From the IMG/VR virus record IMGVR_UViG_3300029763_000196: a DNA stretch of 64,000 nt, one strand, 5' to 3'. The position numbers and the translations under genes were made by a program. The DNA comes from a virus. Under the pieces are notes generated by a model. The model saw only the letters and a program-made list of their open reading frames with translations, was not told the DNA's origin and made no database searches. Shown one piece after another: positions 8,466 through 58,411 of the stretch; position 1 is the stretch's first letter; each line of letters opens with the position of its first letter.

Positions 8466-8954
8466 TTATCATTGTTAAGTTCAACATATTTGCCTTGTAA
8501 AGAGCAGTTCCTTAAAATTTCGGCATTTTCCCGGCCAAATGCAATAAGAACACTACCGCAACCGGGGCTGTCCCCACGTGTTCCATCGGGACGGAAGAAT
8601 TTTATTCGATTCCTCAAAAACATCATACCGGTTGCTTTCGTGAAGATGATGTCTTGAAACTTATTGCTGTCACACCGGTTAAAAAGTAGTGCTATACCGT
8701 TGCCGTGTTCTGCCAATTTCTCTACAAACTGCCATATAAGCGGTTTGGAGTACGGAGGGTTAAGCCAAATTCGCCCCCCCCCAATTTTGTATAAGACCAT
8801 TGTCCTGCTTGTTGTACATGATTTTTGCGGTAGGCCAAAGAGGGTGCATGGGAGCACATGGATCAAGGTCAAATTCACCTAATGCTTCAATGATTTCTCG
8901 TGGTGTGTACCATTCATCGGAAGCGTTTGCAGATCGTTCAAAAGATGTATTCAT
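8462..8954 (-). CDS. phage-type N6-adenine DNA methyltransferase, split by a frameshift at a G9 tract in the coding strand (C9 at 8774-8782 on +)
   Basis: N-terminal fragment (8760..8954) DEWYTPREIIE..FDLDPCA and C-terminal fragment (8462..8878) WLNPPYS are the two halves of one phage Dam-like enzyme (PF05869-like); removing 1 G joins ..QNWGG to RIWLNPPYS in frame. Confidence 0.7.
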
Positions 8955-9187
8955 GTATTACTTACATTTAGGATTTTACGAATTTCTATATGATCGCAAT
9001 TTTCATCAGCCTTTTTCAGAATATAAGCAATTTCTTCTTCCTTACTCATGTTCTGTGGACGTTTCGTTGCTTCTGCTCTCAATTCAGAAATAATTTTATC
9101 TACTTCGGGATTAGGAGTTTCATATAATTTTTTAAATTCAGCGGCTCTACGTTTAATAAGTCGCTCTGTCTTTTTGTTTAATTTCAT
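8951..9187 (-). CDS. hypothetical protein
   Basis: 78-aa charged ORF. Confidence 0.35.
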   Translation of the reverse strand: MKLNKKTERLIKRRAAEFKKLYETPNPEVDKIISELRAEATKRPQNMSKEEEIAYILKKADENCDHIEIRKILNVSNT

Positions 9188-9188
9188 C

Positions 9189-10106
9189 TCACAATATTTT
9201 AAAGTATTCCTTACATAAAAAACCTTTTCTTGGTGAAAAGTCTTTGAAGTCGCAACTCATGTATATTTCCTTCCTATCAGCCCAATGTGCCATGTCTTTC
9301 TGCCACTGTGGAATAATTTGGTGTGGATTGTTCAGATCACGAAAGGGTTGACAATGTGGAAGAAAACGGCGGCTTTTAGATTTCCAGTAGTTGACGCGCG
9401 CAAACGATTCTTCAAAGTCCATAAGGATGCAATACAAGAAATATTCCCCTTTATATCCATACTTGTCTATTAAAGCGGAAGCACGTTCAACTTCTGCAAT
9501 CTGTCCCGGTGTATCGCATCCAAAGCGAATACGTTTAATCCATTTTACTTTTGCAAGTAGCCGAGCGATTTCATCCGTGATTAAACGAGCATCCAGTCCT
9601 TGATTAAAATCCACTTTGATACCCAGTTTGATGATTTTCTCTATTTGCTGCAAGCCATAGTTTGAGGCCAGTATATTATTATCCATAAGGATAGCTTTCT
9701 TCCGTCCGGCTGTTATTTCCTCAATATCCATATAAGGTGAGATTTTTCCTTCTTTTTTAGGAACAACCCACCATTTACACCGATTGGGACACCCACGTGT
9801 CAGAAACCCATAGGACAAATTGGAGTCAATATTGTAGATCGAGTAATCAGGTTGAAGACGATCAACCTCAATTGGAAGAACTTTTTCAATATCATATCCA
9901 GTACCACCTTTTTCTATTTGGTTAGCATTGATATAATAGTTATAGTCGGGTGTGAAAGTGAAAACTTTAGCTGCATATACTTTATCATATTTACATAGTG
10001 GATTATACCATTCCACTTGATCGCCTCTTGCTTTGTGGTAAGCACTGATCTTCATAAGTGCTAAATTGGGGAAATTGCTATCAACGGCTAAAATTCCAAT
10101 ATTCAT
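9189..10106 (-). CDS. hypothetical protein with TRGCPNRC (CxxxC) motif and Rossmann-like N-terminus; function unknown
   Basis: 305-aa ORF; not a canonical CxxxCxxC radical-SAM motif. Confidence 0.4.
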   Translation of the reverse strand: MNIGILAVDSNFPNLALMKISAYHKARGDQVEWYNPLCKYDKVYAAKVFTFTPDYNYYINANQIEKGGTGYDIEKVLPIEVDRLQPDYSIYNIDSNLSYGFLTRGCPNRCKWWVVPKKEGKISPYMDIEEITAGRKKAILMDNNILASNYGLQQIEKIIKLGIKVDFNQGLDARLITDEIARLLAKVKWIKRIRFGCDTPGQIAEVERASALIDKYGYKGEYFLYCILMDFEESFARVNYWKSKSRRFLPHCQPFRDLNNPHQIIPQWQKDMAHWADRKEIYMSCDFKDFSPRKGFLCKEYFKIL

Positions 10107-10501
10107 TATTCTTCAAATTTAGGTTTTGGCATCCATGCTATCGGTTCCCATGACGGAGGTATGCTGCTCATTGAAGAGTAAATTGGGTTACCTTTGTACG
10201 TGTCATAGATATAACCATCCATGCAGAACCATACATTGTTGCTATATGTGCCGTTAAAAATCGCACCATGTTTACATAGAATGATGATGTCTTCATTTTC
10301 ATCCGGCAACTGTCCCTTCACGCTTATCCAAGGTGATTGCTTTGACTGCCAGTCAGCACCTTTTATAAATGCAGATTCTGCAATTTCATCATGAGATAAA
10401 TATGTAAAATCATCAAGTGACGTGTGTGTGCCATAAGTAGTTAATGTTTCGGCACTTGTCATCCTTGCTTCCTTTGCCGCTTCTTCTACTGTCTGTTTCA
10501 T
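10106..10501 (-). CDS. hypothetical protein
   Basis: 131-aa ORF, Trp-rich C-terminus. Confidence 0.35.
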   Translation of the reverse strand: MKQTVEEAAKEARMTSAETLTTYGTHTSLDDFTYLSHDEIAESAFIKGADWQSKQSPWISVKGQLPDENEDIIILCKHGAIFNGTYSNNVWFCMDGYIYDTYKGNPIYSSMSSIPPSWEPIAWMPKPKFEE

Positions 10502-10503
10502 AT

Positions 10504-11172
10504 CTATTTATCAAATAAATTAGTTTGAACCAACGTTCCTCTCTCTGTTTTTATCTCCCCAAAACATTCCCGGTGAAAACGTTCTTCTTGTGCTTCAAAG
10601 TATTCTTCATCTATTTCAGTTGCATAGAAATCGAATCCAAGTCCATAAGCAGCTATTCTGCTACTTCCTGAACCTAAATGACTATCAAAAATTTTGTCTC
10701 CCTCTTTGGCGTTTTTTCTTAATATTTCAGCATATAATTTCACTGGCTTCTGACAACGATGGATATTTCCACCTCGTTCTCCAATTGTACACCGGTTTAG
10801 AGTTATGATCCGAAGAGCTTTGTCAAAACTACTCCATGCCAATTCTCCGTCAGACATTGTTAGTCCATGTTGCCCCTTATCCCAGACGATCCAACCCATT
10901 TTAGGAGGCAGATGTTGAGTAAAATAGTTGCCACCGAAAATTATTTGATTCTTACTCACTCTAAATAACTCCTGAAAATATCTTTTGCCAGGTGGTTTCT
11001 TGTCCCAATCCTTGCGTTTATACTGCTTAAAGCCTAAATGCTTCGGCATCCCACCCTTGTGCATTATGTCTATGCCATACTGGGGATCGACTATCGCTAA
11101 ATCAAAGAACTTATCAGGAATCCCCTTCATGTATTCCATACAGTCCATGTTATATACTTCGCTTATCGGCAT
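10504..11172 (-). CDS. DNA methyltransferase, N4-cytosine/N6-adenine beta class (PF01555-like)
   Basis: motif IV DLAIVDPQYG near the N-terminus and motif I FDSHLGSGSS near the C-terminus, plus HRCQKP. Confidence 0.8.
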   Translation of the reverse strand: MPISEVYNMDCMEYMKGIPDKFFDLAIVDPQYGIDIMHKGGMPKHLGFKQYKRKDWDKKPPGKRYFQELFRVSKNQIIFGGNYFTQHLPPKMGWIVWDKGQHGLTMSDGELAWSSFDKALRIITLNRCTIGERGGNIHRCQKPVKLYAEILRKNAKEGDKIFDSHLGSGSSRIAAYGLGFDFYATEIDEEYFEAQEERFHRECFGEIKTERGTLVQTNLFDK

Positions 11173-11186
11173 TATTTATATCCTTT

Positions 11187-11393
11187 TTATTCTTGTTTAT
11201 AACTAAATATTGGCATTTTTTTAGGCTTTGGGCACTCTTTTAGGTAGTTCCTATCAATCGTAAAAATATCCTGCAAAAGACTTTTCTTTAATGCTTTCTT
11301 TTGCTTTCGAGGAAGTCTTATCAATGTTTTGTATTCGTAAATACCGCCTACAATATGCCATAGTCTGAAATTTATTTTTAATCCTTCATACAT
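11187..11393 (-). CDS. hypothetical protein
   Basis: 68-aa basic ORF. Confidence 0.3.
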   Translation of the reverse strand: MYEGLKINFRLWHIVGGIYEYKTLIRLPRKQKKALKKSLLQDIFTIDRNYLKECPKPKKMPIFSYKQE

Positions 11394-11437
11394 GATTTTG
11401 AATATATGGAAGTAATATAAAGATTTTTCTACTAATA

Positions 11438-11629
11438 TTATTTTCTGATTTCTTCGGCTTTAACGTTATATCCAAGTCTTTTCAATCTATTATAATGGAC
11501 TCCACATAAAAATAGGACATTGCCACTTGGGTATGTAACTTTGTATTTAGCAGTATTTTTACATGGAGTAAAATTGTGCCAGCCTCTTATTCTTGTTTTT
11601 CCTTTATCTACGTGCTCTTCACATTTCAT
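11438..11629 (-). CDS. small Cys/His-containing protein (zinc-binding?)
   Basis: C..H...C and C..H spacing in 63 aa. Confidence 0.3.
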   Translation of the reverse strand: MKCEEHVDKGKTRIRGWHNFTPCKNTAKYKVTYPSGNVLFLCGVHYNRLKRLGYNVKAEEIRK

Positions 11630-11702
11630 AACTTAGTCGTTTGCTTTATAATTGTATAGAATGCGTCATACGGCAGACATTTAACAGCCGTATGACATAC
11701 AC

Positions 11703-12155
11703 TTATTTAACTATCATCCAATCGTTAGCAAGCATATCTGTCTGTGATGCAAGCCAACCATTTACAACGGTGCCATCGGCAGCTTTCATACATAAGTATG
11801 CAGTAAATTTGATTTTATCAATTTCCGAATCTCCATAATTGTTGGCTATCCATTTTTTGAATGATTCGGGAAGTGATTTAACATGATTAACAACCTTTTC
11901 CGTTGATAAACAATCTTCAGGACGCATGAATATGAACATACCCTTACCGTTCCATCCTTTACGAGTAACGAGATGCCCTCGTTTGAGAGATTCAAGTGCT
12001 TGCCCAAAGGTTCCCGTTTCTTCTCCAAGTAATTCACATTCCATTGCCCCTTGTCCGTAAATGGTTTCAATAGTTCCTTTGTAGCTTGCAAGTTCAGGGA
12101 ACTCAGCTACAACCCCTGCTGCATATTCGGCAGCCTTTTCGTCTAATGTCTTCAT
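11703..12155 (-). CDS. DUF2829-domain protein (Tad2-like anti-Thoeris sponge candidate) with an extra N-terminal region
   Basis: LESLKRGHLVTRKGWNGKGMFIF ... DGTVVNGWLASQTDMLANDWMIV matches the DUF2829 signature (KRxGWNGKGMYI...W..W). Confidence 0.5.
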   Translation of the reverse strand: MKTLDEKAAEYAAGVVAEFPELASYKGTIETIYGQGAMECELLGEETGTFGQALESLKRGHLVTRKGWNGKGMFIFMRPEDCLSTEKVVNHVKSLPESFKKWIANNYGDSEIDKIKFTAYLCMKAADGTVVNGWLASQTDMLANDWMIVK

Positions 12156-12272
12156 TCTAATAAATGTTTTTGAGTAAACATTGAATCTGCTTCTTGAAAC
12201 TGTTTTGTGAAGCGGTTCTTTTTATAAACTCTTGGTGCAGTACATCCAGTTAACAAAACAAGGAGTGTAAAG

Positions 12273-12280
12273 ATAATAAG
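12273..12280. repeat. left copy of 8-bp flanking direct repeat ATAATAAG (putative target-site duplication of the Mu-like insertion)
   Basis: identical octamer at 47970..47977 immediately outside the inverted terminal transposase-site repeats. Confidence 0.5.
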
Positions 12281-12286
12281 GGGGAT

Positions 12287-12767
12287 AAAACGAAATGCGA
12301 TAAATTGAGTTATTCCGCATAAACGGTAATAGTTTTGATATACAAATAGTTATGTACGAATAGGAGAGGGGAGAGAGAAAAAACGAAAAGTTTACTCTGC
12401 TTTACTTTGGCTTTACTTTGGACTTTACTTTGAACGGTTTGAACGCCCGTCAACTTTACATGGCAATGGAGATGTGATAAACGGAGTAGAGTAGGGTAGG
12501 AGAAATGCGGTACATGGGCTGCGAAATGCTTTATTTAGGCGTTTTGCAGCCCTTTTTGTGCTTTATAGATAGATTGGCTTCCTACTTTTGAATAGTTGAA
12601 ATTTAGTGCTCAAAATAGCGAAAATAGGGATGGGGGAGGAGAGTGGCGATTTTAACGGGAATATTTCGTTTTTTGAGGATTGGATATGCAGTAGGATATG
12701 CGTTTGGGTATGCAAATTTGTCAAGAAAAAAACGAAATGTGTTGATTGGGTATGCGTTTGGATATGC
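12287..12767. promoter_or_regulatory. left-end region with transposase/repressor binding-site repeats
   Basis: AAAACGAAATGCGA (12287-12300), AAAAACGAAAAG (12377-12390), inverted ATTTCGTTTTTT (12663-12674), AAAAAACGAAATGTG (12725-12740); five GG(A/G)TATGC repeats (12682,12694,12706,12748,12760) spaced by CGTTTGG. Confidence 0.5.
12396..12433. repeat. tandem ~10-bp repeats CTTTACTTTG(G) x3.5
   Basis: gctttactttggctttactttggactttactttgaac seen directly. Confidence 0.6.
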
Positions 12768-19311: not shown

Positions 19312-19728
19312 ATGGGGTATGATTTGATTCCTAAAAAAAATGGTGTTGATAGTAAGCACGGAATGATATTCACTTGGCCGGTCATTTTAAAAGAAACTGG
19401 AGCCGGTTATCTGTTTGGATATGGAACGAATACATTTCAACCGGGAAAATATATATATGACGGTTCCCGTCTTGATGGCAGTCCGGTTAGTAACGATGGA
19501 TTTGATGTATCGAAGGAGGATGCGCTTATTATGGCAAGACTTTTTAAGGGATATGTCTTTGTAAAACGGGGGCTGATTGAAGAATGGGAGAAGATGTCTG
19601 AAAAGGAACAAACTTTAGCTAAATCATTGCTTGGTGAAAAAGCGGCTCCTCCCTCTGAAGAATTTTTGCGGAAAGTAGAAATGTTGGCAGAGTTTTGTGA
19701 ACAGTCTGAAGGATTTAATATATGGTGA
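19312..19728 (+). CDS. hypothetical protein
   Basis: 138-aa ORF. Confidence 0.35.
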   Translation: MGYDLIPKKNGVDSKHGMIFTWPVILKETGAGYLFGYGTNTFQPGKYIYDGSRLDGSPVSNDGFDVSKEDALIMARLFKGYVFVKRGLIEEWEKMSEKEQTLAKSLLGEKAAPPSEEFLRKVEMLAEFCEQSEGFNIW

Positions 19729-20711: not shown

Positions 20712-21380
20712 ATGGCACAGATTGAAGAAAAGCAGACTGTTGAAATGACGGCAGAGGAAAAGGCTCAATTCGAGGCTTTCCGTAAAGAAAAGGCCAAAAA
20801 AGAGACTCAGGAAAAGGCGAAAGCCGAACGTGAAACGTACCGCCAAATGGTGGATGATGAAGTGAACAGCGCAATCCCGGTACTCCTCTCCTTGAGTGAG
20901 GATATCAAGGAAACCAAAAAGACGGTGCTGGAGAACTTTAAGAGTATCCTTGACATGAAATGCGAGGTTCTGAAAGTCGTAAAGGATGACCAGCGCAGCC
21001 ATACCTTTACCAATTCGGAGGGAACCAAGCGCATCACTCTCGGAGTGTACGTGACGGACGGCTACCGTGACACGGTGGAGGACGGCATCGTGATCGTGAA
21101 AGAATACATCGAGAGCCTCGCCGACAATGCTAAAACGAAATCACTCGTGAGCATGGTTTTGAAGTTGCTGGCACGTGATGCCAAAGGCACGTTAAAAGCC
21201 AGTCGTATCGTCCAGCTTCGCAAAATTGCAGAGGAAAGCAACAATGACCGTTTCATGGAGGGTGTCCGCATCATTGAGGAGGCATACCAGCCAGCGATCA
21301 GCAAACAGTTTGTGAGAGCGGAAATGAAGAACGGGGACGGTATGTGGGTGACCATTCCTCTGGGTATGACAGAAGCATAA
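20712..21380 (+). CDS. DUF3164-like Mu-like prophage protein
   Basis: start taken at ATG 20712 (MAQIEEKQ), the track ORF from 20517 overlaps the previous gene; acidic coiled N-terminus then conserved core typical of DUF3164 in Mu-like phages (family recall, moderate). Confidence 0.4.
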   Translation: MAQIEEKQTVEMTAEEKAQFEAFRKEKAKKETQEKAKAERETYRQMVDDEVNSAIPVLLSLSEDIKETKKTVLENFKSILDMKCEVLKVVKDDQRSHTFTNSEGTKRITLGVYVTDGYRDTVEDGIVIVKEYIESLADNAKTKSLVSMVLKLLARDAKGTLKASRIVQLRKIAEESNNDRFMEGVRIIEEAYQPAISKQFVRAEMKNGDGMWVTIPLGMTEA

Positions 21381-21392
21381 GGAGGGACGGTC

Positions 21393-21903: not shown

Positions 21904-21925
21904 AAGCCCTTTAATCAATAATAAA

Positions 21926-47900: not shown

Positions 47901-47969
47901 CACATTTCGTTTTATACCCTGATTATCGCATTTCGTTTTTTATACCGCTCGCATTTCGTTTTGCCGATT
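47901..47969. promoter_or_regulatory. right-end transposase-binding-site repeats (inverted relative to left end)
   Basis: CACATTTCGTTTT, ATCGCATTTCGTTTTTT, TCGCATTTCGTTTT = reverse complements of the left-end AAAACGAAATG(C/T)G sites. Confidence 0.5.
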
Positions 47970-47977
47970 ATAATAAG
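47970..47977. repeat. right copy of ATAATAAG flanking direct repeat
   Basis: identical to 12273..12280. Confidence 0.5.
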
Positions 47978-48003
47978 TAGTATTTTCTTCATAATATTTT
48001 TAT

Positions 48004-48856
48004 TTATTCGCATAGTCCATGAAACAGGCTCATGCAGGCATATCCACTTTCCGGCTCGAACATATCAGGGGTATGTTCTTTAACGTACTCCAAAACTTCC
48101 TCTACATAAGGATATTGTTTGTTTTTACAGAATCTTTGAGGTATGTATGATGGAGGAAAGAAGGAATGTCCCACGTTTTTCTCTGCTTGAATCAGACGTT
48201 GACACATTTCAGGATCATTTTTGGCTATAAGTTCAATTTCTTTATGCCGACACATGATACACGGGAAACATCCAACACGTGAGAATCCACGATAATACAA
48301 TGGATTCGGTTTCTGCCCTGCATCCAGTATGCAATCTATAACTTGCTGTGCACTCCATTTGAAGATCGGTCTTAGAACAGAAGCGTCAAATTGGGAACAC
48401 CATTCTTTGACATCCTTACTTCGGTAGTTTTCAGTTCTTCCTTTCTTATTAGGTTGAAAATACGATTTGAAGTACATACATTCCTCTTCCATTGCCGCAC
48501 GTGCTGTACTTTCTCCGGCTCTGATACCTTGTATAATAATGCAGCTTTCTTTCAAAGAAAGTACATAATCAATCATTGGCTTCATTTTTAGTTCACTGGT
48601 ACAAAACCGTGCATTCGTGGAAGGAAATCTTTTCTTGTGAACTGCCAAAGACACAAAATCGTATTTTGATTTGAGAGTTATAAGTCTTACTCCCATTTGC
48701 AGACAAACATCATTCACATGTTTATATGTGTCAGGGTGTTCCCAGCCGGTGTCACAAAACACAGCGATTAAATTCCCCCCCCCCATATTGTTTGAAGGCT
48801 TGGATCAAACATGCTTGTGAATCCTTACCACCTGAAAAACTTACTAATATTTTCAT
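48004..48856 (-). CDS. PAPS-reductase-like PP-loop ATPase (phosphoadenosine phosphosulfate reductase family), N-terminus split off by a frameshift at a G10 tract
   Basis: upstream mini-ORF MKILVSFSGGKDSQACLIQAFKQYGGG carries the SGGxDS PP-loop; main ORF starts MGGGNLIAVF; removing one G (C10 at 48775-48784 on +) fuses them. Confidence 0.7.
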
Positions 48857-48858
48857 TT

Positions 48859-49486
48859 TTATGTCATTTCAATTTTTACATATTCATTTTTATTAATCCC
48901 GGCACTACCTTTGGGAGAATACACTAATCGGCCTCCATTATCCAATATCTTTTGTACATCTTTCATAGCTTGGTGTGCTTGGGTATAGTCTTTGTATTCT
49001 TGGTGGCCTATTGGGTATTTACAATATCTTCTGCCACCGTCAGGCATGATGCTGATACCGAATACTGTTTCACGAGTTTTTCGGTTGAAATTCTGTTGAG
49101 TCCTTACTTTCATTTTTTTTGATACATTTTCCCAGTTTAAGTATAAATACACATTCGTTATCCGGTGCTCCCCAATTGGTGTTACCAACTCCGATGGTTA
49201 TAGATTCAAGTTCAAAAAGCATTGTCCGTTTGGTGTAGCCAAAACGGAAGCAAACATGAGTGTATTCTTTGGGGTGAAAGCCGTTTCCACGTGTAATACA
49301 AGAAAAACAAATAGCTTTCTTACAATAGAAACCAGTCTTTTCATAGGAATTGCGACCTCCACATTTTGCTAATCTTCCGATCCAGTATTTCTTGATCTCT
49401 CTGTATTCTTCTTTCTTATTTCCGGATTCGATCATTTCATACCATTTTGCTTTTAATGGCAGGTCAAGGATTTTCATATTAACCAT
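48859..49486 (-). CDS. ASCH-domain protein; two overlapping ORFs (49070..49486 and 48859..49188) that would fuse with one fewer A in an A8 run
   Basis: MKILDLPLKAKWYEMIESGNKKEEYREI resembles ASCH/PUA-like N-terminus; T8 at 49113-49120 lies exactly in the overlap. Confidence 0.4.
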
Positions 49487-49720
49487 AGTCTAAAAGAGTT
49501 GCGGATTCTGTTTGTCGTGAAGGATTTTTTGAACACGTTCAATTTCTTCATCTACTTCACGCTCAATTTGTTTACTTATTCGTAAATCTATCTGTCTCTT
49601 ATTTTTGAAATATTCTTTTTGGCAACGGCGCATTTCCACCACTTTGTCGAAAAATTCTTTTGGAGTCATAGATTTAAAAGGTATGGAAAAGGCCGCTTTG
49701 ATGCGGCCTCCCCAGTGTGA

Positions 49721-50305
49721 TTACTTTTTTCCAATCAGAAAGTCTTTCCACAATTCTTTGAATTGTTCTCCAAAGTAAATTGCGATTTCACTTGATTTTA
49801 CAGCAAGGCGAGAGCCGACACTCGCAGTCGAGTACGACCAAACGGTATGCGAGGACGCATAAGCGAGGCCGCACCTCGCACCGTAATCCGCATTACCGCC
49901 CCAAAGAACCAGCTGATTACGATCCTCTTCGTCCATTTCATCAATTTCTTTCTGATTATAAAGATAAAACCACGGCGTATAACGGTATTCATCTTTAGTA
50001 AATCGTGGAAAATCAGGATCGTTGTTCAATGCACGAGCAATTGTGCATAGTTTGATGTAGGCGAGGTGTGCAATATCAGCCACTTCTTCTTTGTGTCCGT
50101 CTTCATCCTCAACAAGTAGGCGAACAATAGGTTTTACACCTATTGCTTCACAAGCATCTTCGTAGGTTTTAATATTGTGATAATCTGTATAATCCGGCTT
50201 TTGCTTTCCGAATAGGGCTGTTAGAATACTAATTGCTTTAGGACAGTCGTTTGCTTCACTAAAAGCGGCTGTTACCTTTTCTTGTGTGATTTTAAGTTCT
50301 GACAT
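49721..50305 (-). CDS. hypothetical protein
   Basis: 194-aa ORF. Confidence 0.4.
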   Translation of the reverse strand: MSELKITQEKVTAAFSEANDCPKAISILTALFGKQKPDYTDYHNIKTYEDACEAIGVKPIVRLLVEDEDGHKEEVADIAHLAYIKLCTIARALNNDPDFPRFTKDEYRYTPWFYLYNQKEIDEMDEEDRNQLVLWGGNADYGARCGLAYASSHTVWSYSTASVGSRLAVKSSEIAIYFGEQFKELWKDFLIGKK

Positions 50306-50313
50306 AATGTAAA

Positions 50314-51066
50314 TTATTTATTGTTAATACTATATCCGAATAATGCAAAATCTCCCCGGCACGGATCATCCGGGAAAATTGTTTTCATGTAATTGGTTAC
50401 TTGTTGAACCATTTTCCAGTCCTCTGTTTTGCGTGTTGTTATCCCAAGCTGGTGTGCCATTTTTGCAACATGTGCATCCAATGGTATGTATAATTCTGTC
50501 GGGTGAATAATATTCCAAATACCTAAATCCACCGGCGATTTTCGTACTACCCACCGTAGAAACAGACAAATACGCTTGCATGGAGAATCACGCTCCAATT
50601 TTGGAATACCTTTTACGCCACCAAAATCTGTTTGTATTTCACGGATAACATTGTTGTAACCCTCATAAAATACTTCCAAATCATCCCATTCCTGATATAT
50701 GTTGTACAACCGCTGGCAAATGCAGAAGAAGTCATGGTAGGTGAACATACGGTAGAAGGTATTTGTATTTTCTTTGTATTGTTCCCATACTTTGTTCATA
50801 ATGAAGGCATAAGGAGAATTACCCATTAGATTATCCAAAATTTCTGCTTGCTGCATTATCAGTTTGCGATTCCCGAAAGCTATCCATGAAGTAAGAAAGG
50901 CACTGATTTCTATGTCCTTTTTATCATTGTACTTATGTGGAAAAAATATAGGATCATCTTTTATAAAATCAGGTGTTTCAAATTGTTTCGCCCAGTCAAG
51001 TAGTTTGTCTCTTAGTTCTTCCATAATATTCTTCTTTCCATTTTTTGAAAGCGGCTTCTTTATCAT
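50314..51066 (-). CDS. hypothetical protein, possibly HhH-type DNA-glycosylase-like (DUF2400/TIGR02757-like)
   Basis: segment LDAHVAKMAHQLGI resembles the helix-hairpin-helix region of Nth-type enzymes; family recall uncertain. Confidence 0.25.
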   Translation of the reverse strand: MIKKPLSKNGKKNIMEELRDKLLDWAKQFETPDFIKDDPIFFPHKYNDKKDIEISAFLTSWIAFGNRKLIMQQAEILDNLMGNSPYAFIMNKVWEQYKENTNTFYRMFTYHDFFCICQRLYNIYQEWDDLEVFYEGYNNVIREIQTDFGGVKGIPKLERDSPCKRICLFLRWVVRKSPVDLGIWNIIHPTELYIPLDAHVAKMAHQLGITTRKTEDWKMVQQVTNYMKTIFPDDPCRGDFALFGYSINNK

Positions 51067-51679
51067 TTGATTTCATCCTTTGTATGAATGATTGATGGGA
51101 TTCCAATAATTCTTTGGCCTCTTCATCTCCATTTTCCGATCTTTCAGTTAGATGTTTGATATATTCTCCGTAGAACATTCCAGTGCTGTTATTATTTTGT
51201 TCATGGGCTTCATTAATTGAAAGAGAAGAAACAATTTCATCACGCTGTGCATCGTATTCATTTAACCAGCCGAGAATGATATTACCGTCCAGTCTATCGT
51301 AAATCTTACCGGAAGCCATAGCATTACGGAAACACAATTTGATTTCCTCCAATTTGAGATAATAGAATCTGTCTATTATTAGATCAGCGGTAAGTGCCAC
51401 TTGAACATCATTCATCGTTTTTCCAACATTGAAAAAAGACACAAGCTCGTTAATCGCAATTACCAGTATGGCTCTTGCGCCAGCCAATGTGATTTCTTTT
51501 CTTATAACGGAGAGTGGTAGGTTAGGAGTGTTGAGAACAGCTTCTTTAATCGAACTTACGTGCAATCCCTTGTAATACTCCGCTTGCAAGGTCAGCAAGT
51601 CTTTCAACGCTTTCTTTTCGGTTGCCGGGAGATTGCTGTTGACTTGAATTAAGTTGTTTCCCATACTTGTTAAAATCAT
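50996..51679 (-). CDS. hypothetical protein
   Basis: 227-aa ORF; start uncertain (overlaps upstream gene). Confidence 0.35.
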   Translation of the reverse strand: MILTSMGNNLIQVNSNLPATEKKALKDLLTLQAEYYKGLHVSSIKEAVLNTPNLPLSVIRKEITLAGARAILVIAINELVSFFNVGKTMNDVQVALTADLIIDRFYYLKLEEIKLCFRNAMASGKIYDRLDGNIILGWLNEYDAQRDEIVSSLSINEAHEQNNNSTGMFYGEYIKHLTERSENGDEEAKELLESHQSFIQRMKSNDKEAAFKKWKEEYYGRTKRQTT

Positions 51680-51965
51680 TATTAGACCATCTGACTAAAC
51701 GTTTGGAAACTTCAAATGTACGTTCCTTCTCAAAGCGCATTTTCCGTCCTCCGCATTCAGTCCAATACTCGAAAAAGTCCTTCAACATATCATCAGGATA
51801 TTTCCCTCTATACATGAGGACTTCACTTCTGAATTTGTCTTTCCTTGCAGAAAGAGAATCCTTATTCATATTCATCTTATGGCCTAATCCGGCCATGAAT
51901 GCTTGTTCCAATGTTGCATCAGGATGATCCCGACACCACTGGGTTGCTAATTCTTCTGATTTCAT
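51546..51965 (-). CDS. hypothetical protein
   Basis: 139-aa ORF. Confidence 0.35.
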   Translation of the reverse strand: MKSEELATQWCRDHPDATLEQAFMAGLGHKMNMNKDSLSARKDKFRSEVLMYRGKYPDDMLKDFFEYWTECGGRKMRFEKERTFEVSKRLVRWSNNDFNKYGKQLNSSQQQSPGNRKESVERLADLASGVLQGIARKFD

Positions 51966-51970
51966 TTGAT

Positions 51971-53077
51971 TTATAATTTAGATAACCAATATTTCCATAT
52001 TCGTGAGGCTACGTGCGCCATCATAACGGGTGGTACACTCATTCCACAGATATAATGTGGGGATTGGTTGAGGAAATGATAATCTTGTGGAAATGTGGAT
52101 ATATTACATACTTCTGACCGTGATAAATATATAGGCTGCTTAAAAGGAATAATTGAGTCTGCATGAGTTGTTAGGGTGTAGCTTACTTTGTTCTCATATA
52201 GATATTGTTGATTAAAAAAGCCTCGTTTTCCAGTTTGTTTCTTATAGGCCTCTGCCAAAGCAATATCTCCTGCCACTCTCTGCTCAAATAACTTTCTCAT
52301 TTTTACACCAATAGGCTTTCCCTTGTAATCCGCATATTCCCCATAATATATTTCCGATTCATTAAATTCCATGTCGATGTATGGCTCAACATTGAAGAGG
52401 TCTGAAACTTTTAGGAAATGGACTCCCAAATCATGCCTGATACATATAAAGAATACACGTTCTCTTTTTTGAGGTACTCCCATTTTAGAAGCATCAAGAA
52501 GAAAATGCTGACAATAATAACCAGCTTCCTCAAAGTCTTTGTATATACGTCTGACATAATCAATCGCATTCCCTAAAAGAAGTCCTTTCACATTTTCAGC
52601 AATAACGACTTTAGGTTTTAAGCGTTTGGCAAGTGCAATAAAATCAAAAAAGAGCGTGTCTAAAACTTGTGTCTTTTGACCTTCTTTGAATTTCTTTTCT
52701 TTACCCCACGCATCTTCACGTAATCCCGACATGCTAAATGTACTGCAAGGTGGTGATCCGTCCAATATATCTAAATGGTACAGTTCTTCGGGAAGATTAT
52801 TCCTTTTCACTAAATCACGAATATCTTCCAAATAACTATACTGGGGATGATGGTTTGTTTCATAGCATTTCATCATTCGTGGATCAATCTCATTACAGCC
52901 AATAACATCGTAACCTGCTATTTTGTAACCCATAGTAGAGCCACCGCCACATGCAAAACAAGAAAATACCTTTCCTTTATCTTTAGTAAAAACAGCATCT
53001 TCTAAAGACCAGCGATAAGGATAGAGATGTTGTGTATGGGGGGGGGTAATTACATCTTTCATCATTCCACCTCCCAT
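51971..53077 (-). CDS. DNA cytosine-5 methyltransferase
   Basis: motif I FSCFACGGGS, motif IV PCSTFS, ENV (motif VI), QxRxR-like RERVF; in-frame C9 run (TPPH) near the 5' end. Confidence 0.85.
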   Translation of the reverse strand: MGGGMMKDVITPPHTQHLYPYRWSLEDAVFTKDKGKVFSCFACGGGSTMGYKIAGYDVIGCNEIDPRMMKCYETNHHPQYSYLEDIRDLVKRNNLPEELYHLDILDGSPPCSTFSMSGLREDAWGKEKKFKEGQKTQVLDTLFFDFIALAKRLKPKVVIAENVKGLLLGNAIDYVRRIYKDFEEAGYYCQHFLLDASKMGVPQKRERVFFICIRHDLGVHFLKVSDLFNVEPYIDMEFNESEIYYGEYADYKGKPIGVKMRKLFEQRVAGDIALAEAYKKQTGKRGFFNQQYLYENKVSYTLTTHADSIIPFKQPIYLSRSEVCNISTFPQDYHFLNQSPHYICGMSVPPVMMAHVASRIWKYWLSKL

Positions 53078-53598
53078 AATTCAGCTACTCTTTTGAACTC
53101 TTCATCAGCCGGAACCGGGCAATCTTTGATCCATTGCATATCTTTTACTTTCCATAACGAAAGGTCTGTGTTGTCAGGAATATGCTTTTTAATATCAGGA
53201 AAAAGATTGAGCCGAAGAGATTTACTTTCCATAAGTTCATCTTTGTAATCCAACAAAAAATTATTGGCCTCCAATAAACTATGAACATCATTAACAGAAT
53301 GTGGAGTGTAAACAACTCCATCGAAGTATCTGATATAATTGGGGAGCATATCAGCCAGTGCCGTATATAGAAATAATTTTCCTTTATTACCATAGGCCAA
53401 TTTTTGAACGGTTTTGATACTTTCAGCCAAATTTGCCAGTTTTTCAGGAAACAAAAGTGGTTCTCCACCAGTTATCATGATCTCTTTGTAATTAAAGTGC
53501 TCAACAACTGGTAATTTTGAAAAATCCCATGAGTTGTTGCAACACATAGGACATTTGTTCGGACATTTGGTTGTAACCAATAGACGTAACTTTTCCAT
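53062..53598 (-). CDS. small radical SAM protein (NrdG/QueE-like organic-radical-activating enzyme family)
   Basis: CPNKCPMC = CxxxCxxC cluster motif, then ITGGEPLL SAM-binding motif; 178 aa. Confidence 0.65.
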   Translation of the reverse strand: MEKLRLLVTTKCPNKCPMCCNNSWDFSKLPVVEHFNYKEIMITGGEPLLFPEKLANLAESIKTVQKLAYGNKGKLFLYTALADMLPNYIRYFDGVVYTPHSVNDVHSLLEANNFLLDYKDELMESKSLRLNLFPDIKKHIPDNTDLSLWKVKDMQWIKDCPVPADEEFKRVAELWEVE

Positions 53599-53875
53599 TT
53601 ATAATGATATTGTTTGGGTGTATTTCAATTCTCCGGTATATCCACGTGCTTTCAATTCTGCGATAAGTTCCCGTGGAGAAAATTTTGCCAATTCAGGATT
53701 GGAATATATTTTCTTCAAATTCCCCCCCCCCCGGAGTTTTCTTACGGTTTCTGGCATAAACATTACCGCACTCTTTACAATATGTCTGCAATCCATCTTC
53801 GGTTGAAGCATTTTTCCAAAACTCACTGACCGGAAGTTCCCGGCCACATTTGCTACATTTTTTTAATTTTTCCAT
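53599..53875 (-). CDS. small zinc-ribbon protein split by frameshift at a G11 tract
   Basis: N-terminal CSKCGREL...CKECGN zinc ribbon (53693..53875) and C-terminal part (53599..53847) join in frame if one G of the tract (C11 at 53722-53732 on +) is removed. Confidence 0.45.
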
Positions 53876-54330
53876 TATTCCTTTTCTTTAATTCTACCAT
53901 ATTCACATATTAGTAAGGCATCCGAAGTTGCCAATGTAACTTTTGCATACGGGAACAGCTGTTGGGCTTTCTTCTTTAAGATGTTTTTCCATTCTGTCTT
54001 ACCCAATTTGTCTGTATTTCGTAATCCTATAGTTTTTTGCCAAGTTTGTGGAGATACTGTTACTGTCGGAATCCCACAAGCTATCAATCCCATAGTCAGC
54101 TGTCCGTAACCTTCTCCAAAAACAAAAGAGGCAGAAGCACTTTGTCCGGTCATGCCATTCACTCGTTCCAAATAACAAACGCTATTTTCTTTGTATATGG
54201 AGAGAAAATCTAATAAGTCTTTGGGAGTTGGTGGCATTTTGATACACTCCAATAATTTGTTATTCTCGGTGTCGTACACTACAATTCCACCGTTTTTGCC
54301 AACATCTATACCTATGATCCTTCGTTTCAT
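53875..54330 (-). CDS. RuvC-like Holliday junction resolvase
   Basis: N-terminal IIGIDVGKNGGIVVYD (RNase H-like fold first strand with catalytic Asp), 151 aa. Confidence 0.55.
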   Translation of the reverse strand: MKRRIIGIDVGKNGGIVVYDTENNKLLECIKMPPTPKDLLDFLSIYKENSVCYLERVNGMTGQSASASFVFGEGYGQLTMGLIACGIPTVTVSPQTWQKTIGLRNTDKLGKTEWKNILKKKAQQLFPYAKVTLATSDALLICEYGRIKEKE

Positions 54331-54333
54331 AAA

Positions 54334-54552
54334 TTATACTTTTTTGTTTATAAATCTTTTGAGCTTAATTACATCTTTCTTTCCAAGCCTTAGTGCTTCA
54401 CTGGTCTTGATGTCAGAAGGTGAAGCTTTACAATTCTCGGTTATCCTTTCAAAATGTCGGATAAAGGATTTTAGGAAATAGTCGGGGATTTCAACTTTCA
54501 TAATGATTGATTTATGTGGATAAGCCCGGACTCGAACCGGGAACTGTTGCAA
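54334..54552 (-). CDS. hypothetical protein
   Basis: 72-aa ORF. Confidence 0.3.
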   Translation of the reverse strand: MQQFPVRVRAYPHKSIIMKVEIPDYFLKSFIRHFERITENCKASPSDIKTSEALRLGKKDVIKLKRFINKKV

Positions 54553-54679
54553 TCAGGATTTTCGTTTCTGCTTCCGTTTGTACGTATGTCAAGTGTTAAT
54601 AGCATATTACCTGACTCGTGATGCTATTCGTGCATTTTTACCACAGAAACTAAGCGTCTTCCGATTTCGCCACTTATCC
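54513..54679 (-). other. tRNA-like element: perfect T-arm and 7-bp acceptor pairing, but 167 nt long with an internal structured insert (split/intron-containing tRNA, tRNA-like ncRNA or att-site remnant)
   Basis: minus strand: GGATAAG...GCGAAATCGGAAGACGC...[GTTTCTG..AATAGCAT hairpin ATGCTATT..CAGAAAC]...CCCGG TTCGAGT CCGGG CTTATCC A. Confidence 0.3.
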
Positions 54680-54866
54680 GTTTGCCTCTACAATAGAGGC
54701 ATTTTACATGAACAAAAAGACTCTTTGTAGTATCTACCGCCGTGGAGCGTATGCAGCGTACTCGACTCGACTTGCAAAGAGAAGAAAAAAGGTGAGGCAT
54801 GATAGTTCCCGGATAGGCGGTCAAGCCACACCGGGAGAAGCTGATTATTAATCGGGTTGATAATTA

Positions 54867-55076
54867 TTATTTTAGGAATTTAGCAAAAGTCTTGATTGAG
54901 CCTTCATTATTACTTTTTAAAGAGGCCAATTCTGTATTTTTAGAAGTTAGTGTAGAAATAACAGATTTATTCTTTTCGATTTCTGCATCAATATCACTAT
55001 TAAGTGTTTCCAAATCGGCTTTTGCTTGTGCAAATTGAGACAATATCGTATCTCTTCTTTGTTGAAATGTCAGCAT
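54867..55076 (-). CDS. small coiled-coil protein
   Basis: 69-aa ORF. Confidence 0.3.
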   Translation of the reverse strand: MLTFQQRRDTILSQFAQAKADLETLNSDIDAEIEKNKSVISTLTSKNTELASLKSNNEGSIKTFAKFLK

Positions 55077-55077
55077 A

Positions 55078-55887
55078 TTATTTTGTCATTTTTAAAAATT
55101 CAGGAGCAATGCCATATAGAGGTGTCTTCCCGTCCCACTTGTCTATAAATTGTTTATATAAAATCTCACGGGTGAGTCCACGGGACGCAATTAAAGCTTG
55201 TTCTGTTTTTAGTTGCTCCAGTTCGTTTTGCTTCTTTTGTTCTTCAATCTTCTGATCAAGTACCGAAATATTAGTGTTTACCTCGTTACGGCTATCTATT
55301 TTATCGCGGACAGCTCTTGAAAATTCCAATTGTGCGGAGAAGGTCAATAACTGCAATCCCCGTTTCTCAAATTCTTTATCAACGATCTGTTCCAGTCTCT
55401 TTTCAAATACCAATGAACCACCGTCAGCCATCAGACTGTCTGTTTTATGTTTGCGACTTTCTTCTTTGATAAGATCATATATACGTGGCTCCAAAATATT
55501 ATCTTCTAATGATTGCATAAAGCCATCTTTTCCCGATGGGGTGTCAGCCTTATCAATATGCTTGTTATCAAATACAATATCAATAGCCCTGTTTTTCATT
55601 ACTTTATAAGAGTAAGTTGGCCGGGCTGTAAACTCTGTATTGTCGGCTGCTTTTAGTGTGACTGGATCAGAAAATTCTCCACGCTGATCGAATAGCGGAA
55701 CTTGAAAAAGCTCTGTGCCTAATTCCCATGTAGATACCTTACCGGCAACGATTTTAAAATCTTCTTTCCCTTGTTTGCCGTAGTTCTCCATAAGGACACC
55801 GGCATAATTGGGAGCAACTCTTTCGCATGAAGCAAACAAAACAACGGCAAATAGTGCCACAATCAAAAAATCAATCTTTCTTTTCAT
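55078..55887 (-). CDS. SPFH/band-7 (prohibitin-like) lipoprotein
   Basis: signal peptide with lipobox LFASC; SPFH-like core followed by long coiled coil. Confidence 0.5.
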   Translation of the reverse strand: MKRKIDFLIVALFAVVLFASCERVAPNYAGVLMENYGKQGKEDFKIVAGKVSTWELGTELFQVPLFDQRGEFSDPVTLKAADNTEFTARPTYSYKVMKNRAIDIVFDNKHIDKADTPSGKDGFMQSLEDNILEPRIYDLIKEESRKHKTDSLMADGGSLVFEKRLEQIVDKEFEKRGLQLLTFSAQLEFSRAVRDKIDSRNEVNTNISVLDQKIEEQKKQNELEQLKTEQALIASRGLTREILYKQFIDKWDGKTPLYGIAPEFLKMTK

Positions 55888-56046
55888 TTTCTACTTTTTT
55901 AATGATATTATAAACTATAAATGCTACTGTCAGCATAATTATTGAAATTCCCAACCACGCATTTATGTGATTGAATACGCGGTTGCCAATGAAGAAAGCC
56001 GATACGACAAGTACCGGCTTCCAGTATTTCTTTACAGTCTTCATTG

Positions 56047-56790
56047 TTATTGTTCGATAATGGCAATATCCGGTGCCAATTTACGGATCAACAATAATTG
56101 CTCGTCAATGGCCTTGTTGCGTTCCTCTTCCACTATCACTTCTGCACCAGGGGAGCAAAGGGACAATCGAATATTACGCCCGTCCACATCTGCAATGATT
56201 TCCACTTCAATCTCTTCTGCAGGGCGACCTTTGAAAATCGGGACAATAAGATTGAATGAGGCCGGAAGATTGGAGTTGACAACTTGGCTGTAATTGTCAG
56301 TGCGACTACCGTTGTCTTGTCGGGAGTTTTCCACTTTTGAGTCAATGCTGGCTTTGAAGTTCTTCAAGACTGTTACCAGTTCCATGTTGTATTGTGCATC
56401 CTTGAAGAAGGCACGATTCATTTTGAAGAACTTTGAAAGCTGCACCGGTTCCCATGTCTTGCTTGTGTTAATACCAAATTCAAGAAACTTGGGATAGTAT
56501 TTCAACTCACCTCTTACAGTAGCTTTATTCCTACTGTCAGTTTCATTGGTGACAAGTTTAAGTGTCATTTTCTCCCGATCAACAAGAATATAGCAACGTT
56601 TCTGATTGATCTGCTCTTTTTCAGAGATTCCTTTCAAGAGAAATTCATGAACACTTCCAATTGTTCCGGCTAATTCTACCTTATCAGGCTCCAGTACCGG
56701 TAACTCATTTTCTTCGTGAAGTTCAATAACTCTAAGGGTTGCTTCGGTCACACCCGGAGCAAAGTTCACTTGCATCTTTTCGTTTTCCAT
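56047..56790 (-). CDS. hypothetical protein
   Basis: 247-aa ORF. Confidence 0.4.
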   Translation of the reverse strand: MENEKMQVNFAPGVTEATLRVIELHEENELPVLEPDKVELAGTIGSVHEFLLKGISEKEQINQKRCYILVDREKMTLKLVTNETDSRNKATVRGELKYYPKFLEFGINTSKTWEPVQLSKFFKMNRAFFKDAQYNMELVTVLKNFKASIDSKVENSRQDNGSRTDNYSQVVNSNLPASFNLIVPIFKGRPAEEIEVEIIADVDGRNIRLSLCSPGAEVIVEEERNKAIDEQLLLIRKLAPDIAIIEQ

Positions 56791-56796
56791 GTTGTT

Positions 56797-57075
56797 CTAC
56801 AAATTTTTAGTTCTGTTTTTAAATGATTTGGCTGGTTTGAAGTGTGGAGTATAATGCTCCGCTATGACAATAGTCTCGTTTTTGTGTATGTTACGAGCAA
56901 CTTTTCGTTTATAGTGTTTGGGTGACAGTGTACCAAAACCTCTGATATAAAGAGTTCTTCCATTAGCTACTGCATCCACGGTTTCCTTCAATGCTGCTTC
57001 TATAACTGTTCGGACTTCGCAAATAGCAATACCGGTTGATTCGGCTACTTGCTTGATAAGTTCTTCTTTTCTCAT
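56797..57075 (-). CDS. HU/IHF-family DNA-binding protein
   Basis: 92 aa; MRKEELIKQVAESTGI...RGFGTL...ARN (RNP-like arm motif) typical of HU. Confidence 0.8.
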   Translation of the reverse strand: MRKEELIKQVAESTGIAICEVRTVIEAALKETVDAVANGRTLYIRGFGTLSPKHYKRKVARNIHKNETIVIAEHYTPHFKPAKSFKNRTKNL

Positions 57076-57078
57076 GGC

Positions 57079-57507
57079 TTATCCCTCCGTACCAGTAGAT
57101 TCAATGTCCTCGAAGACCGTTTTTTGCATCTCTTGTGCCTCCATCGGACGTTCTTTAACCAAATCGCCATTACCATTGTAATATCCGGTGGTACGGGTGC
57201 TACGATCCATAAACTTAAAGCATTCATCCGTAATTTCCTCATAACCACGTTTTATATCGGTAAGCAACGTTTTTTTACGTTCCTTTTTAGGTTTCAGTTT
57301 GTCCTTGTATGCTTGCATGAAAGCTTTCTTTTCTTCTTCCAGTGCGGCCATGTCAAGGTCAATATTTGCCAACTCCGTTTTCCGTTCACCCATTTCTTCC
57401 TCGCTGAAAGGAGAAGTATAGGTAATTCTTTCAACTGCTGCGCAATTGTCTTCCAACATTTGTCTGCGAAGCAATGGATTCTTATCTTTAAATAGTTCTT
57501 TATCCAT
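57079..57507 (-). CDS. hypothetical protein
   Basis: 142-aa acidic ORF. Confidence 0.4.
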   Translation of the reverse strand: MDKELFKDKNPLLRRQMLEDNCAAVERITYTSPFSEEEMGERKTELANIDLDMAALEEEKKAFMQAYKDKLKPKKERKKTLLTDIKRGYEEITDECFKFMDRSTRTTGYYNGNGDLVKERPMEAQEMQKTVFEDIESTGTEG

Positions 57508-57508
57508 A

Positions 57509-57736
57509 TCATAAAGGTTTTAAGCCATATCGGGCAGAACCGACAAATGGCTGTGGGTTAGTCCTTATGTTTGCTTTGTGTATATCATCTGTACGATGAT
57601 TGAATAATCGGGGTAATCCCGTTATTTTGTCATATACAACCAGTTCAGACGATACATAACAAATAAAGCCTTTCAGTCGCTCTTTCAACCATGCGTTCTG
57701 ATAGGCTCTGCGTTCACGATATTCTTGGTAGCTCAT
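57509..57736 (-). CDS. hypothetical protein
   Basis: 75-aa ORF; G9 tract (C9 at 57778-57786 on +) lies in its 5' leader. Confidence 0.35.
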   Translation of the reverse strand: MSYQEYRERRAYQNAWLKERLKGFICYVSSELVVYDKITGLPRLFNHRTDDIHKANIRTNPQPFVGSARYGLKPL

Positions 57737-57795
57737 TCCCTTTGGGCGAGCTGTGAGAAGGGGAGTGTAATTTCTCGCCCCCCCCCGATTTAGAT

Positions 57796-58411
57796 TTACT
57801 CTTTCCCATCAATCAAATTTTTATATTGTTCTTCTGAAACGAACTTGTCGCAGTTCCCATACCAAGTACCATCATTTATCTTGTATGGCCTGACTGTTTT
57901 ATCCATTTCATTCATAACACCGACTACCGCATTTTCTTTGCTATTATCATCCCATACAATAACAACATCGCCGACAGTCGGGATATATTCAGGCTGTAAC
58001 TTCTCAAAATTGAAGGAGTAATGTTTTTCTTCCTTCATGGCGGCAAGCATCTTTGCCTTTTCCTCTTCCGTAGCTTTACGGAATCCCTTCATGCCTCCGA
58101 TACCAGCTTCGGGTGTGAGTCTTACAAAAACTCTGTCACCTTCATCATTGGAAGGAACATAGGCGACAAGGCCGAAAGGTACTTTAATTGCCGGTAAAAA
58201 AGAGAGTGGCCTTTCTTCTCTAATTTCAGAGAGAATCATCATGCTGCCCCCTCCGCGATTCGGATTGATAATTACGTCACCGGGGATGAATGTCTCACCC
58301 TCAAATTCAAATTTACCCCCCCCCCGTAACTTTTTGAGTAGGTTGCATACTTTCTTCTTTCACGATTTTTACCATGTGTCCTTCGGGCACTTCAACTGTT
58401 ACTGTTCTCAT
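57796..58411 (-). CDS. hypothetical protein split by frameshift at a G10 tract
   Basis: upstream mini-ORF MRTVTVEVPEGHMVKIVKEESMQPTQKVTGGG* (ATG 58411 overlaps upstream stop as ATGA) continues into MMILSEIREERP... if one G (C10 at 58316-58325 on +) is removed. Confidence 0.45.

Follow-up and report, generated by a model that had tools for sequence, protein, structure and literature searches.

Six G/C homopolymer tracts as probable contingency loci in early genes of the temperate Bacteroides/Phocaeicola phage LoVEphage

In phasevarions, simple sequence repeats (SSRs) switch the Mod or Hsd methyltransferases of Haemophilus, Neisseria, Helicobacter, Moraxella, and Campylobacter. Among phages, the Fletchervirus phages of Campylobacter are described, as cited in PMC12823448, as carrying hypermutable polyG tracts in receptor-binding protein genes (Sorensen et al., 2021, Cell Rep 35:109214), and T-even and other lytic phages have homopolymer SSR contingency loci in their open reading frames (ORFs), with frameshifts of ±1 (Gomez, Barrick and Waters, 2025, bioRxiv; PMC12633550). 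The agt gene of phage T2, when ON, protects from McrBC-type restriction and, when OFF, lets the phage escape a nuclease targeting the modification (PMC12633550). In gut Bacteroidales, epigenetic phase variation proceeds by site-specific inversion between inverted repeats in host restriction–modification (R–M) loci (PMC11741434). Here, we analyze a 64,000-nt stretch of viral DNA, IMG/VR record IMGVR_UViG_3300029763_000196 (the window, below, is this whole stretch), which holds a prophage of LoVEphage, a temperate phage of Bacteroides and Phocaeicola. Six long G/C runs in the early DNA-metabolism arm of this phage are, in our judgment, likely to be real, hypermutable SSR contingency loci.

LoVEphage is the commonest inducible prophage species detected in one large study, with ~8% of 1,241 gut viromes, and its induction has been reported from B. 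thetaiotaomicron, P. dorei, and P. vulgatus (PMC12629997). Both arms of the prophage (1–12276 and ~48000–64000) are 96–99.7% identical to six deposited genomes: MW660583, OY725593, OY731444, and OY731433 (LoVEphage), BI-TP1 (B. intestinalis), and PV4-TP1 (P. vulgatus), the last two being induced phages. The reference MW660583 matches at 99.3–99.7% identity with 83–98% of both arms covered, which places the prophage in LoVEphage, and the gene order is common to the window and all six genomes. The arms are contiguous in the deposited genomes and are split in the window by a transposable element at ~12281–47971; hence, the window is a LoVEphage prophage interrupted by this element.

Variable G/C tracts in the early arm

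The window was scanned for runs of at least seven identical bases. All seven homopolymers listed by an earlier, sequence-only reading of the window are present (Table 1; T1, T2, T4, T5, T6, and T7 are the G/C runs, T3 is the A/T run). In the phage part of the window there are 254 G/C runs of length 3, 58 of length 4, eight of length 5, one of length 6, none of lengths 7–8, and then three of length 9, two of length 10, and one of length 11. Thus, six runs of 9–11 nt within ORFs stand against a background maximum of 6. With overlaps counted, G9 is matched 10 times against 0.37 expected from dinucleotide shuffles, and 0/100 shuffles reach 10. Both the bimodal run lengths and the shuffles bear out the claim that G/C runs of this size are beyond chance in this DNA. 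It had also been claimed that no comparable tract occurs in the Mu-like phage inserted between the arms. This holds for G/C runs, the longest of which in the 35.7-kb insert is 6, and fails for A/T runs, as A8 (19333–19340) and T8 (25937–25944) are present there; hence, the eight-T run of T3 is no outlier.

Relatives were gathered around the C5-methyltransferase gene (55 IMG/VR, 10 GTDB, and 80 metagenome loci) and by pattern scans (a further 53; ~200 loci). All tract lengths and ON (full ORF in frame) or OFF states given below are those of assembled consensus sequences. None of the six deposited genomes lacks any of the G/C tracts; the sites are the same, and the lengths differ (10, 10, 10, 8, 8, 10 for T2; 8, 8, 9, 8, 11, 8 for T6). 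A search of related prophages had been proposed as a check, and throughout them the positions are the same, with lengths of 6–12. Loci with identical 100-nt flanks on both sides still show three to five tract lengths. Among control runs, G6 at 59513 is unchanged in 42/43 loci, C5 runs are invariant, 7-T runs vary in 0–10% of loci, and A8 of T3 varies in 29%. Compared with its closest relatives (99.2–99.4% identity, ~85–110 substitutions in 14.3 kb), the window has six indels, of which the tracts account for 3/6 for two relatives and 4/6 for a third, while its A/T homopolymers agree with these relatives. The tracts are therefore fixed in position, and among near-identical genomes their lengths shift by ±1–3 nt far faster than the flanks acquire substitutions, toggling the frame of the downstream part of the gene. 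Contigs of high coverage (22–484, from contig names; Illumina metagenomes) also differ in length and state, OFF included, and OFF states are found among the complete induced-phage genomes. OY725593 and OY731444, near-identical and separately deposited, have the same length at every tract compared, an agreement that random miscalling would hardly give.

Every gene with a tract is encoded on the minus strand and belongs to the leftward early/DNA-metabolism arm. Frame analysis and domain matches that extend across the tracts show that a change in length toggles between a full-length and a truncated product. T4 is ON in the window, and T1, T2, T5, T6, and T7 are OFF, each exactly one base too long. 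The sequence-only reading had likewise described T4 as in frame. Frame analysis also confirms that the ORFs on either side of the tracts at 8774, 48775, 53722, and 58316 become one when a single base is deleted. The tract at 57778, taken to be intergenic, lies instead inside the 5′ part of a 99-aa ORF, so that +1 breaks number five, not four. Nor are all tracts at 5′ ends of genes: they start at codons 58/163 (T1), 25/283 (T2), 12/368 (T4), 49/91 (T5), 9/99 (T6), and 30/204 (T7).

Table 1. Homopolymer tracts of the LoVEphage prophage, their genes, lengths among relatives, and the 10-nt stretches 3′ of each G-run searched for AATT.
Tract	Position	Strand	Run	Gene	Run lengths among relatives (loci)	ON	AATT search stretch
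T1	8774..8782	(-)	coding-strand G9, codons 58-60	163-aa Dam-like N6-adenine DNA methyltransferase (8462-8954)	7 (4), 8 (10), 9 (10), 10 (2)	10/26	8764-8773
T2	48775..48784	(-)	coding-strand G10	283-aa PAPS-reductase-domain gene (48004-48856)	7-12 (2, 12, 10, 16, 1, 2)	10/42	48765-48774
T3	49113..49120	(-)	coding-strand A8, AAAAAAAATG, abuts ATG	ORF downstream of ASCH-domain gene			
T4	53038..53046	(-)	coding-strand C9 (G9 on + strand), codons 12-14 T-P-P	368-aa C5-cytosine DNA methyltransferase (51971-53077)	6-11 (1, 7, 33, 41, 13, 3)	35/97	53047-53056
T5	53722..53732	(-)	G11	zinc-ribbon gene (53599-53875)	7-11 plus interrupted variants	24/80	53712-53721
T6	57778..57786	(-)	G9, codons 9-11	99-aa ORFan (57509-57809)	7-12	26/46	57768-57777
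T7	58316..58325	(-)	G10, codons 30-32 G-G-G	204-aa LoVEphage-specific ORFan (57796-58411)	7-11	24/40	58306-58315

The tracts show 37 distinct ON/OFF patterns in 45 genomes with at least four scorable tracts each. Two of the 15 tract pairs are nominally associated (p ~0.03), none significantly after correction; coupling between tracts was hence rejected, and the tracts vary largely independently. A change of ±1 nt in the tract alone restores the full ORF for almost all OFF alleles of T1 (16/17), T2 (30/30), T5 (54/56), and T7 (16/17), and for 46/57 of T4 and 16/20 of T6. The median pairwise ratio of nonsynonymous to synonymous substitution rates (dN/dS) of the restored ORFs is 0.115 for T1, 0.121 for T2, 0.27 for T4, 0.056 for T6, and 0.21 for T7. 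These ratios indicate that five of six genes are under purifying selection, though most of the sampled consensus sequences are OFF; intact and selected genes that are mostly OFF would be expected of reversible switches rather than of decaying pseudogenes. The ON state is enriched over 1/3 at T6 (p = 0.0015) and T7 (p = 0.0006).

The T1 run encodes W-G-G just upstream of the NPPY motif and is in frame at G8 or G11. The ON form matches Pfam Dam PF05869 across the tract (3e-15, residues 10–129), phrog_111 (4e-41), and the PADLOC “orphan methyltransferase” model. The GGGGAGGG allele, seen in 9/27 IMG/VR contigs, contains a synonymous in-frame interruption of the G-run (GGA, Gly); such an allele looks like a natural “locked-ON” form and should stabilise the methyltransferase in the ON state. 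The T2 run separates the SGGKDS PP-loop from the remaining domain and is in frame at G9 or G12; at G10, as in the window, a 34-aa product remains. The ON form matches Pfam PAPS_reduct PF01507 across the tract (2e-24, residues 3–200), and the best matches in the PADLOC defence library are SspD (1e-22) and BrxP (6e-17); in the Ssp phosphorothioation system and in BREX, respectively, these are the PAPS-reductase-like components.

The T4 run, ON at 9, sits in the N-terminal leader, upstream of motif I. The protein matches Pfam DNA_methylase (PF00145, Dcm; 4e-45, residues 36–360), and its best PADLOC matches are Type II methyltransferase models. At C8, the deposited annotations give a 320-aa ORF beginning after motif I. 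In homologues of this C5-methyltransferase from other phage contigs (~52–60% identity), G-G-G of the AdoMet motif I FxCGGGS is encoded by an unbroken G8–G9, with GGC GGT GGC in LoVEphage instead; the G8–G9 run may be an independent poly-G switch elsewhere in the same enzyme family.

T5 is better described as switching between isoforms than as strictly ON/OFF: G10 yields a 91-aa protein, and G11 of the window (+1) yields a 60-aa zinc-ribbon-only isoform with an altered tail. The N-terminal zinc ribbon matches phrog_1035 (endonuclease VII; 4e-12) and phrog_5558 (Lar-like; 8e-10), and the gene is annotated as 60 aa “Lar-like” or as 91 aa “HNH endonuclease,” depending on the genome. Besides pure runs, relatives have the interrupted variants GGGAG(n) and G(n)T. 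The same gene contains a 7-T run at 53858–53864 (A7 on the coding strand, codons 4–6), which has length 6 or 8 in 7/68 relatives and could be a second, weaker frameshift site or low-coverage assembly noise.

The ATG of the T6 ORF, at 57809, overlaps the stop codon of the upstream gene; the ORF is in frame at G8 or G11 and is annotated as a coding sequence of 99–100 aa in OY725593, PQ571265, and PQ571302. T7 is in frame at G9 (also at 6 or 12). The protein clusters have 4,089 members for its 204-aa form and 827 for the main truncated form of 148 aa, and homologues are limited to LoVEphage-like phages. Neither ORFan has a family match in Pfam, PHROGs, NCBIfam, or PADLOC; the AlphaFold2 model of the T7 protein (19-sequence alignment) has mean pLDDT 44 and pTM 0.37. 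Natural in-frame variants GG, GGG, and GGGG are seen in the alignment of T7, as well as double-frameshift alleles, which go out of frame at the G-tract and return at a downstream GGAGGGGG or CCCCGG; in one homologue, the reading frame runs on into the following gene, whose 5′ end is out of frame. The double frameshifts appear to be compensatory indels or further minor slippage sites. In general, the deposited annotations split or truncate the tract genes inconsistently between genomes; therefore, gut-phage gene catalogues and methyltransferase censuses may systematically miscount these genes.

Alternative explanations and possible function

The sequence-only reading had left a choice between contingency loci and homopolymer over-calling. 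The fixed positions, lengths of 6–12, and intact ORFs favour the former for the six G/C tracts, with T3 falling outside. Sequencing or assembly artefact, in which the tracts or their out-of-frame lengths are homopolymer miscalls of a phage that is truly all in frame, would agree with the state of the window, where five of six tracts are at ON+1, the most extreme of ~30 genomes (binomial ~0.016 per genome, which is unremarkable across ~30 genomes). It would also agree with the low coverage (1–5x) of many related metagenome contigs and the variation of 7-T runs in up to 10% of loci, due to which part of the length spread may indeed be assembly noise. However, the same sites carry the tracts in all relatives, which come from independent studies and include Human Microbiome Project-era assemblies and induced isolate phages; the lengths range beyond ±1; OFF lengths occur in the high-coverage contigs and complete phage genomes; OY725593 and OY731444 coincide at the compared tracts; and the co-assembled Mu-like insert has no G/C run above 6. 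General over-calling in the window is likewise not supported, since its A/T runs agree with those of its nearest relatives and the indels cluster at the G/C tracts. We thus regard an artefact as very unlikely; the tracts themselves are no artefact, although their exact lengths in this window could be over-called. Non-adaptive hot spots, i.e., hypermutable runs tolerated in dispensable accessory genes, with states that drift and provide no bet-hedging, are an unlikely explanation too. The OFF alleles are almost free of second-site lesions and dN/dS is 0.06–0.27 in five genes, therefore the genes are used; the runs stay unbroken across lineages with dS up to 0.35–0.6, though a synonymous change in any GGN codon would suffice to stabilise a run; the ON state is in excess at T6 and T7 (p ~0.001); and three of the six genes encode DNA-modification enzymes, a class with a documented ON/OFF trade-off (phage T2 agt). 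Drift would, on the other hand, fit the ON fraction of ~1/3 in four of six genes, the loss or interruption of a tract in some lineages, and dN/dS of T5 (0.77; a short gene, hence noisy), for which neutrality may hold even if disfavoured overall.

Runs of at least nine, mostly A/T runs, can support transcriptional slippage. Programmed slippage of RNA polymerase, or ribosomal frameshifting, would produce an in-frame protein from any tract length, with both isoforms always made, and would explain an out-of-frame consensus combined with purifying selection; T5 does give two plausible isoforms. Against this, one and the same tract calls for an offset of +1, −1, or 0 depending on the genome, so that no fixed signal would serve. 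Instead of a fixed out-of-frame arrangement with a conserved slippery sequence, in-frame, +1, and −1 lengths are found at every tract, and an unsystematic look showed neither a conserved slippery heptamer nor a downstream structure. In addition, variation at the DNA level is directly observed and sufficient, and it is at this level that T6 and T7 are enriched for ON. Since no frame offset is conserved, slippage at expression is not the designed mechanism and is a poor candidate for explaining the tracts, but it could still add leaky expression. The remaining alternative is a cis-acting signal, in which the G-run with AATT forms a binding, nicking, or recombination site and frame effects are secondary. 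In the G orientation, AATT (mostly AATTT) occurs within 10 nt 3′ of all six genic G-runs, including the antisense G strand of T4, while 0/20,000 random six-site draws share any 4-mer at all six sites and the probability of AATT is 0.059 per site. Nevertheless, the tracts are frame-critical in six different ORFs and vary in length; a C-tract at 62656–62663 of PV4-TP1 has no AATT and still varies from 7 to 10, therefore AATT is not needed for variability; and the tract is still variable in certain T5 lineages where AATT is gone (G(n)ATTGAAG). This explanation is hardly credible.

Several observations weigh against the contingency loci that we favour, starting with the ON+1 excess of the window, the noise in low-coverage contigs, and the T5 ratio. 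The ON fractions of T1, T2, T4, and T5 (0.24–0.38) are no different from the random expectation of 1/3, hence there is no sign of selection for ON at these tracts in the sampled consensus genomes; such a fraction fits fast switching with episodic selection, and equally neutral drift. A T7 sub-lineage (~78% identity) has no tract, and T1 is interrupted in one third of the IMG/VR alleles, therefore mutability is not kept universally. Bacteroidales mostly use DNA inversions, SSR phase variation being unusual in them (PMC11741434). The evidence is comparative, at the level of consensus sequences, and it is from this and by analogy that we infer the adaptive role and the phasevarion-like working.

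If the tracts are contingency loci, changes in their length would arise by slipped-strand mispairing at replication and be reversible, as established for SSR phase variation in general. Judging by gene content, switching of T1 (N6-methyladenine), T4 (5-methylcytosine), and T2 (SspD/BrxP-like) would vary how virion and lysogen DNA is modified, and mixed states would hedge between hosts with R–M systems that demand modification and hosts with modification-dependent nucleases. LoVEphage is induced from three Bacteroidaceae species and therefore plausibly meets hosts with such opposing demands. Additional anti-defence or regulatory accessories may be encoded by the zinc-ribbon gene and both ORFans. 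One prophage could then yield epigenetically mixed populations of lysogens and virions, which would provide a mechanism for the broad host range of LoVEphage and for part of the mosaic methylomes described for the Bacteroides fragilis group, and SSR-type phase variation would reach a phylum in which inversions are the only well-documented means of such switching. A more far-reaching proposal is that six independently slipping poly-G switches with the shared G(n)-AATT context form a dedicated “phasotype” system of up to 64 states, which diversifies DNA modification and anti-defence functions, lets one phage lineage lysogenise and replicate in several Bacteroides/Phocaeicola species, and makes host methylomes phase-variable, with AATT marking active sequence-targeted slippage or repair evasion and not passive polymerase error; as a whole, we consider it improbable.

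T3, the insert, and further runs

The sequence-only reading had treated T3 as a tract of the same kind as the G/C runs, where deletion of one T would fuse two ORFs. The length of T3 is 8 in 40/56 relatives, and A7, which fuses the ASCH ORF and the downstream ORF into a 208-aa frame, is found in ~10/56; in most of these relatives, A7 is linked to a C-to-T change shortly upstream. The mechanically fused A7 product matches phrog_625 only over the ASCH part (residues 4–125). With the A-run directly before the downstream ATG and the match restricted to the ASCH portion, a split gene was rejected; T3 is probably an ordinary A-rich pre-start stretch in an overlapping gene pair, outside the G/C switch set. 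Since ~10/56 relatives have the fused form, some doubt about this rejection stays.

Another A/T run differs between the window and its relatives. At 55895–55900, the 3′ end of a small ORF (55871–56044) just upstream of the start of the band-7/lipoprotein gene (55887), the window has six T, and three of the four closest relatives have eight, the alignment of the fourth ending before the site; this 2-nt difference is unlike the other A/T runs.

In the complete PV4-TP1 genome, the conserved tracts are all in the leftward early/DNA-metabolism arm, plus one intergenic tract, and none is in a structural or tail gene. At 62656–62663, outside the part shared with the window, PV4-TP1 has a further C8 run in an apparently non-coding stretch beside a G-rich segment (GGGAGGGCA-C8), upstream of a small ORF that precedes the primase gene; across 27 IMG/VR contigs its length ranges from 7 to 10 nt, and it could act as a switch of the promoter or terminator kind. 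C8 at 29525 of PV4-TP1 was rejected as a conserved tract, being a lineage-specific in-frame run where the window has CCCTCCCT. In genomes of the LoVEphage family (PV4-TP1 21328–23979, likewise beyond the window), a reverse transcriptase adjoins a tail protein whose domain is of the Mtd_N type, an arrangement suggestive of a diversity-generating retroelement (DGR); if so, the phage would pair DGR diversification of the tail with SSR switching of early genes.

The insert is 35.7 kb long with ~50% GC, compared with ~38% GC for the phage part of the window. It lies between the PAPS-reductase gene and the small ORF after the DUF2829 gene, with junctions at ~12276–12290 and 47960–47980, and the empty site is visible in PV4-TP1 at 36715/36739. 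ATAAG is a probable 5-bp target duplication, and the two ends carry copies of AAAACGAAATGCGA in inverted orientation, in keeping with a transposable phage of the Mu type; the element is a phage transposed into a prophage. A megablast search against a collection of 50,697 phage records found no DNA-level relatives of the insert (only 1–3% coverage at ~75% identity).

Comparison with known systems

Like LoVEphage, Fletchervirus has several long poly-G runs in phage ORFs, with length variation that frameshifts genes and, according to the account cited in PMC12823448, gives phenotypically mixed phage populations. Those are virulent phages with tracts in receptor-binding protein genes and a host that itself uses polyG switches, while LoVEphage is a temperate phage of Bacteroidota with tracts in DNA-modification enzymes and ORFans. 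None of the LoVEphage tracts is in a receptor-binding or tail gene, and tail diversity is apparently left to the putative DGR.

The likeness to phasevarions suggested by the sequence-only reading is partial. T1 and T4 are SSRs inside ORFs of DNA methyltransferases and could, as far as the genes tell, alter methylation of the lysogen genome-wide. Classical phasevarions, however, involve Type III mod or Type I hsd genes of chromosomal R–M systems with a demonstrated regulon, while the LoVEphage enzymes are orphan, Dam-like (PF05869) and Dcm-like (PF00145), rather than Mod or HsdM/S components; no restriction gene is annotated beside either methyltransferase in the six deposited genomes. With the gut Bacteroidales, LoVEphage as read here shares reversible methyltransferase switching in Bacteroides/Phocaeicola; there it proceeds by inversion in host R–M loci, and here by homopolymer slippage in a prophage.

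The logic proposed for LoVEphage is that of phage T2 agt, a DNA-modification gene with an ON/OFF trade-off between two restriction systems. The T-even loci are mostly A runs of 6–9 nt, hundreds of them across AT-rich genomes, with rare variants found by deep sequencing; LoVEphage has six discrete G/C runs of 9–11 nt, far above background and polymorphic at the consensus level between natural isolates. The literature searched on LoVEphage, gut phages, and methylomes, subscription journals lying outside the search, is silent on homopolymers, frameshifts, and phase variation in LoVEphage. While SSR switching itself is known, what is new here is a probable multi-locus set of poly-G switches in a temperate phage of Bacteroidota, centred on orphan DNA-modification genes.

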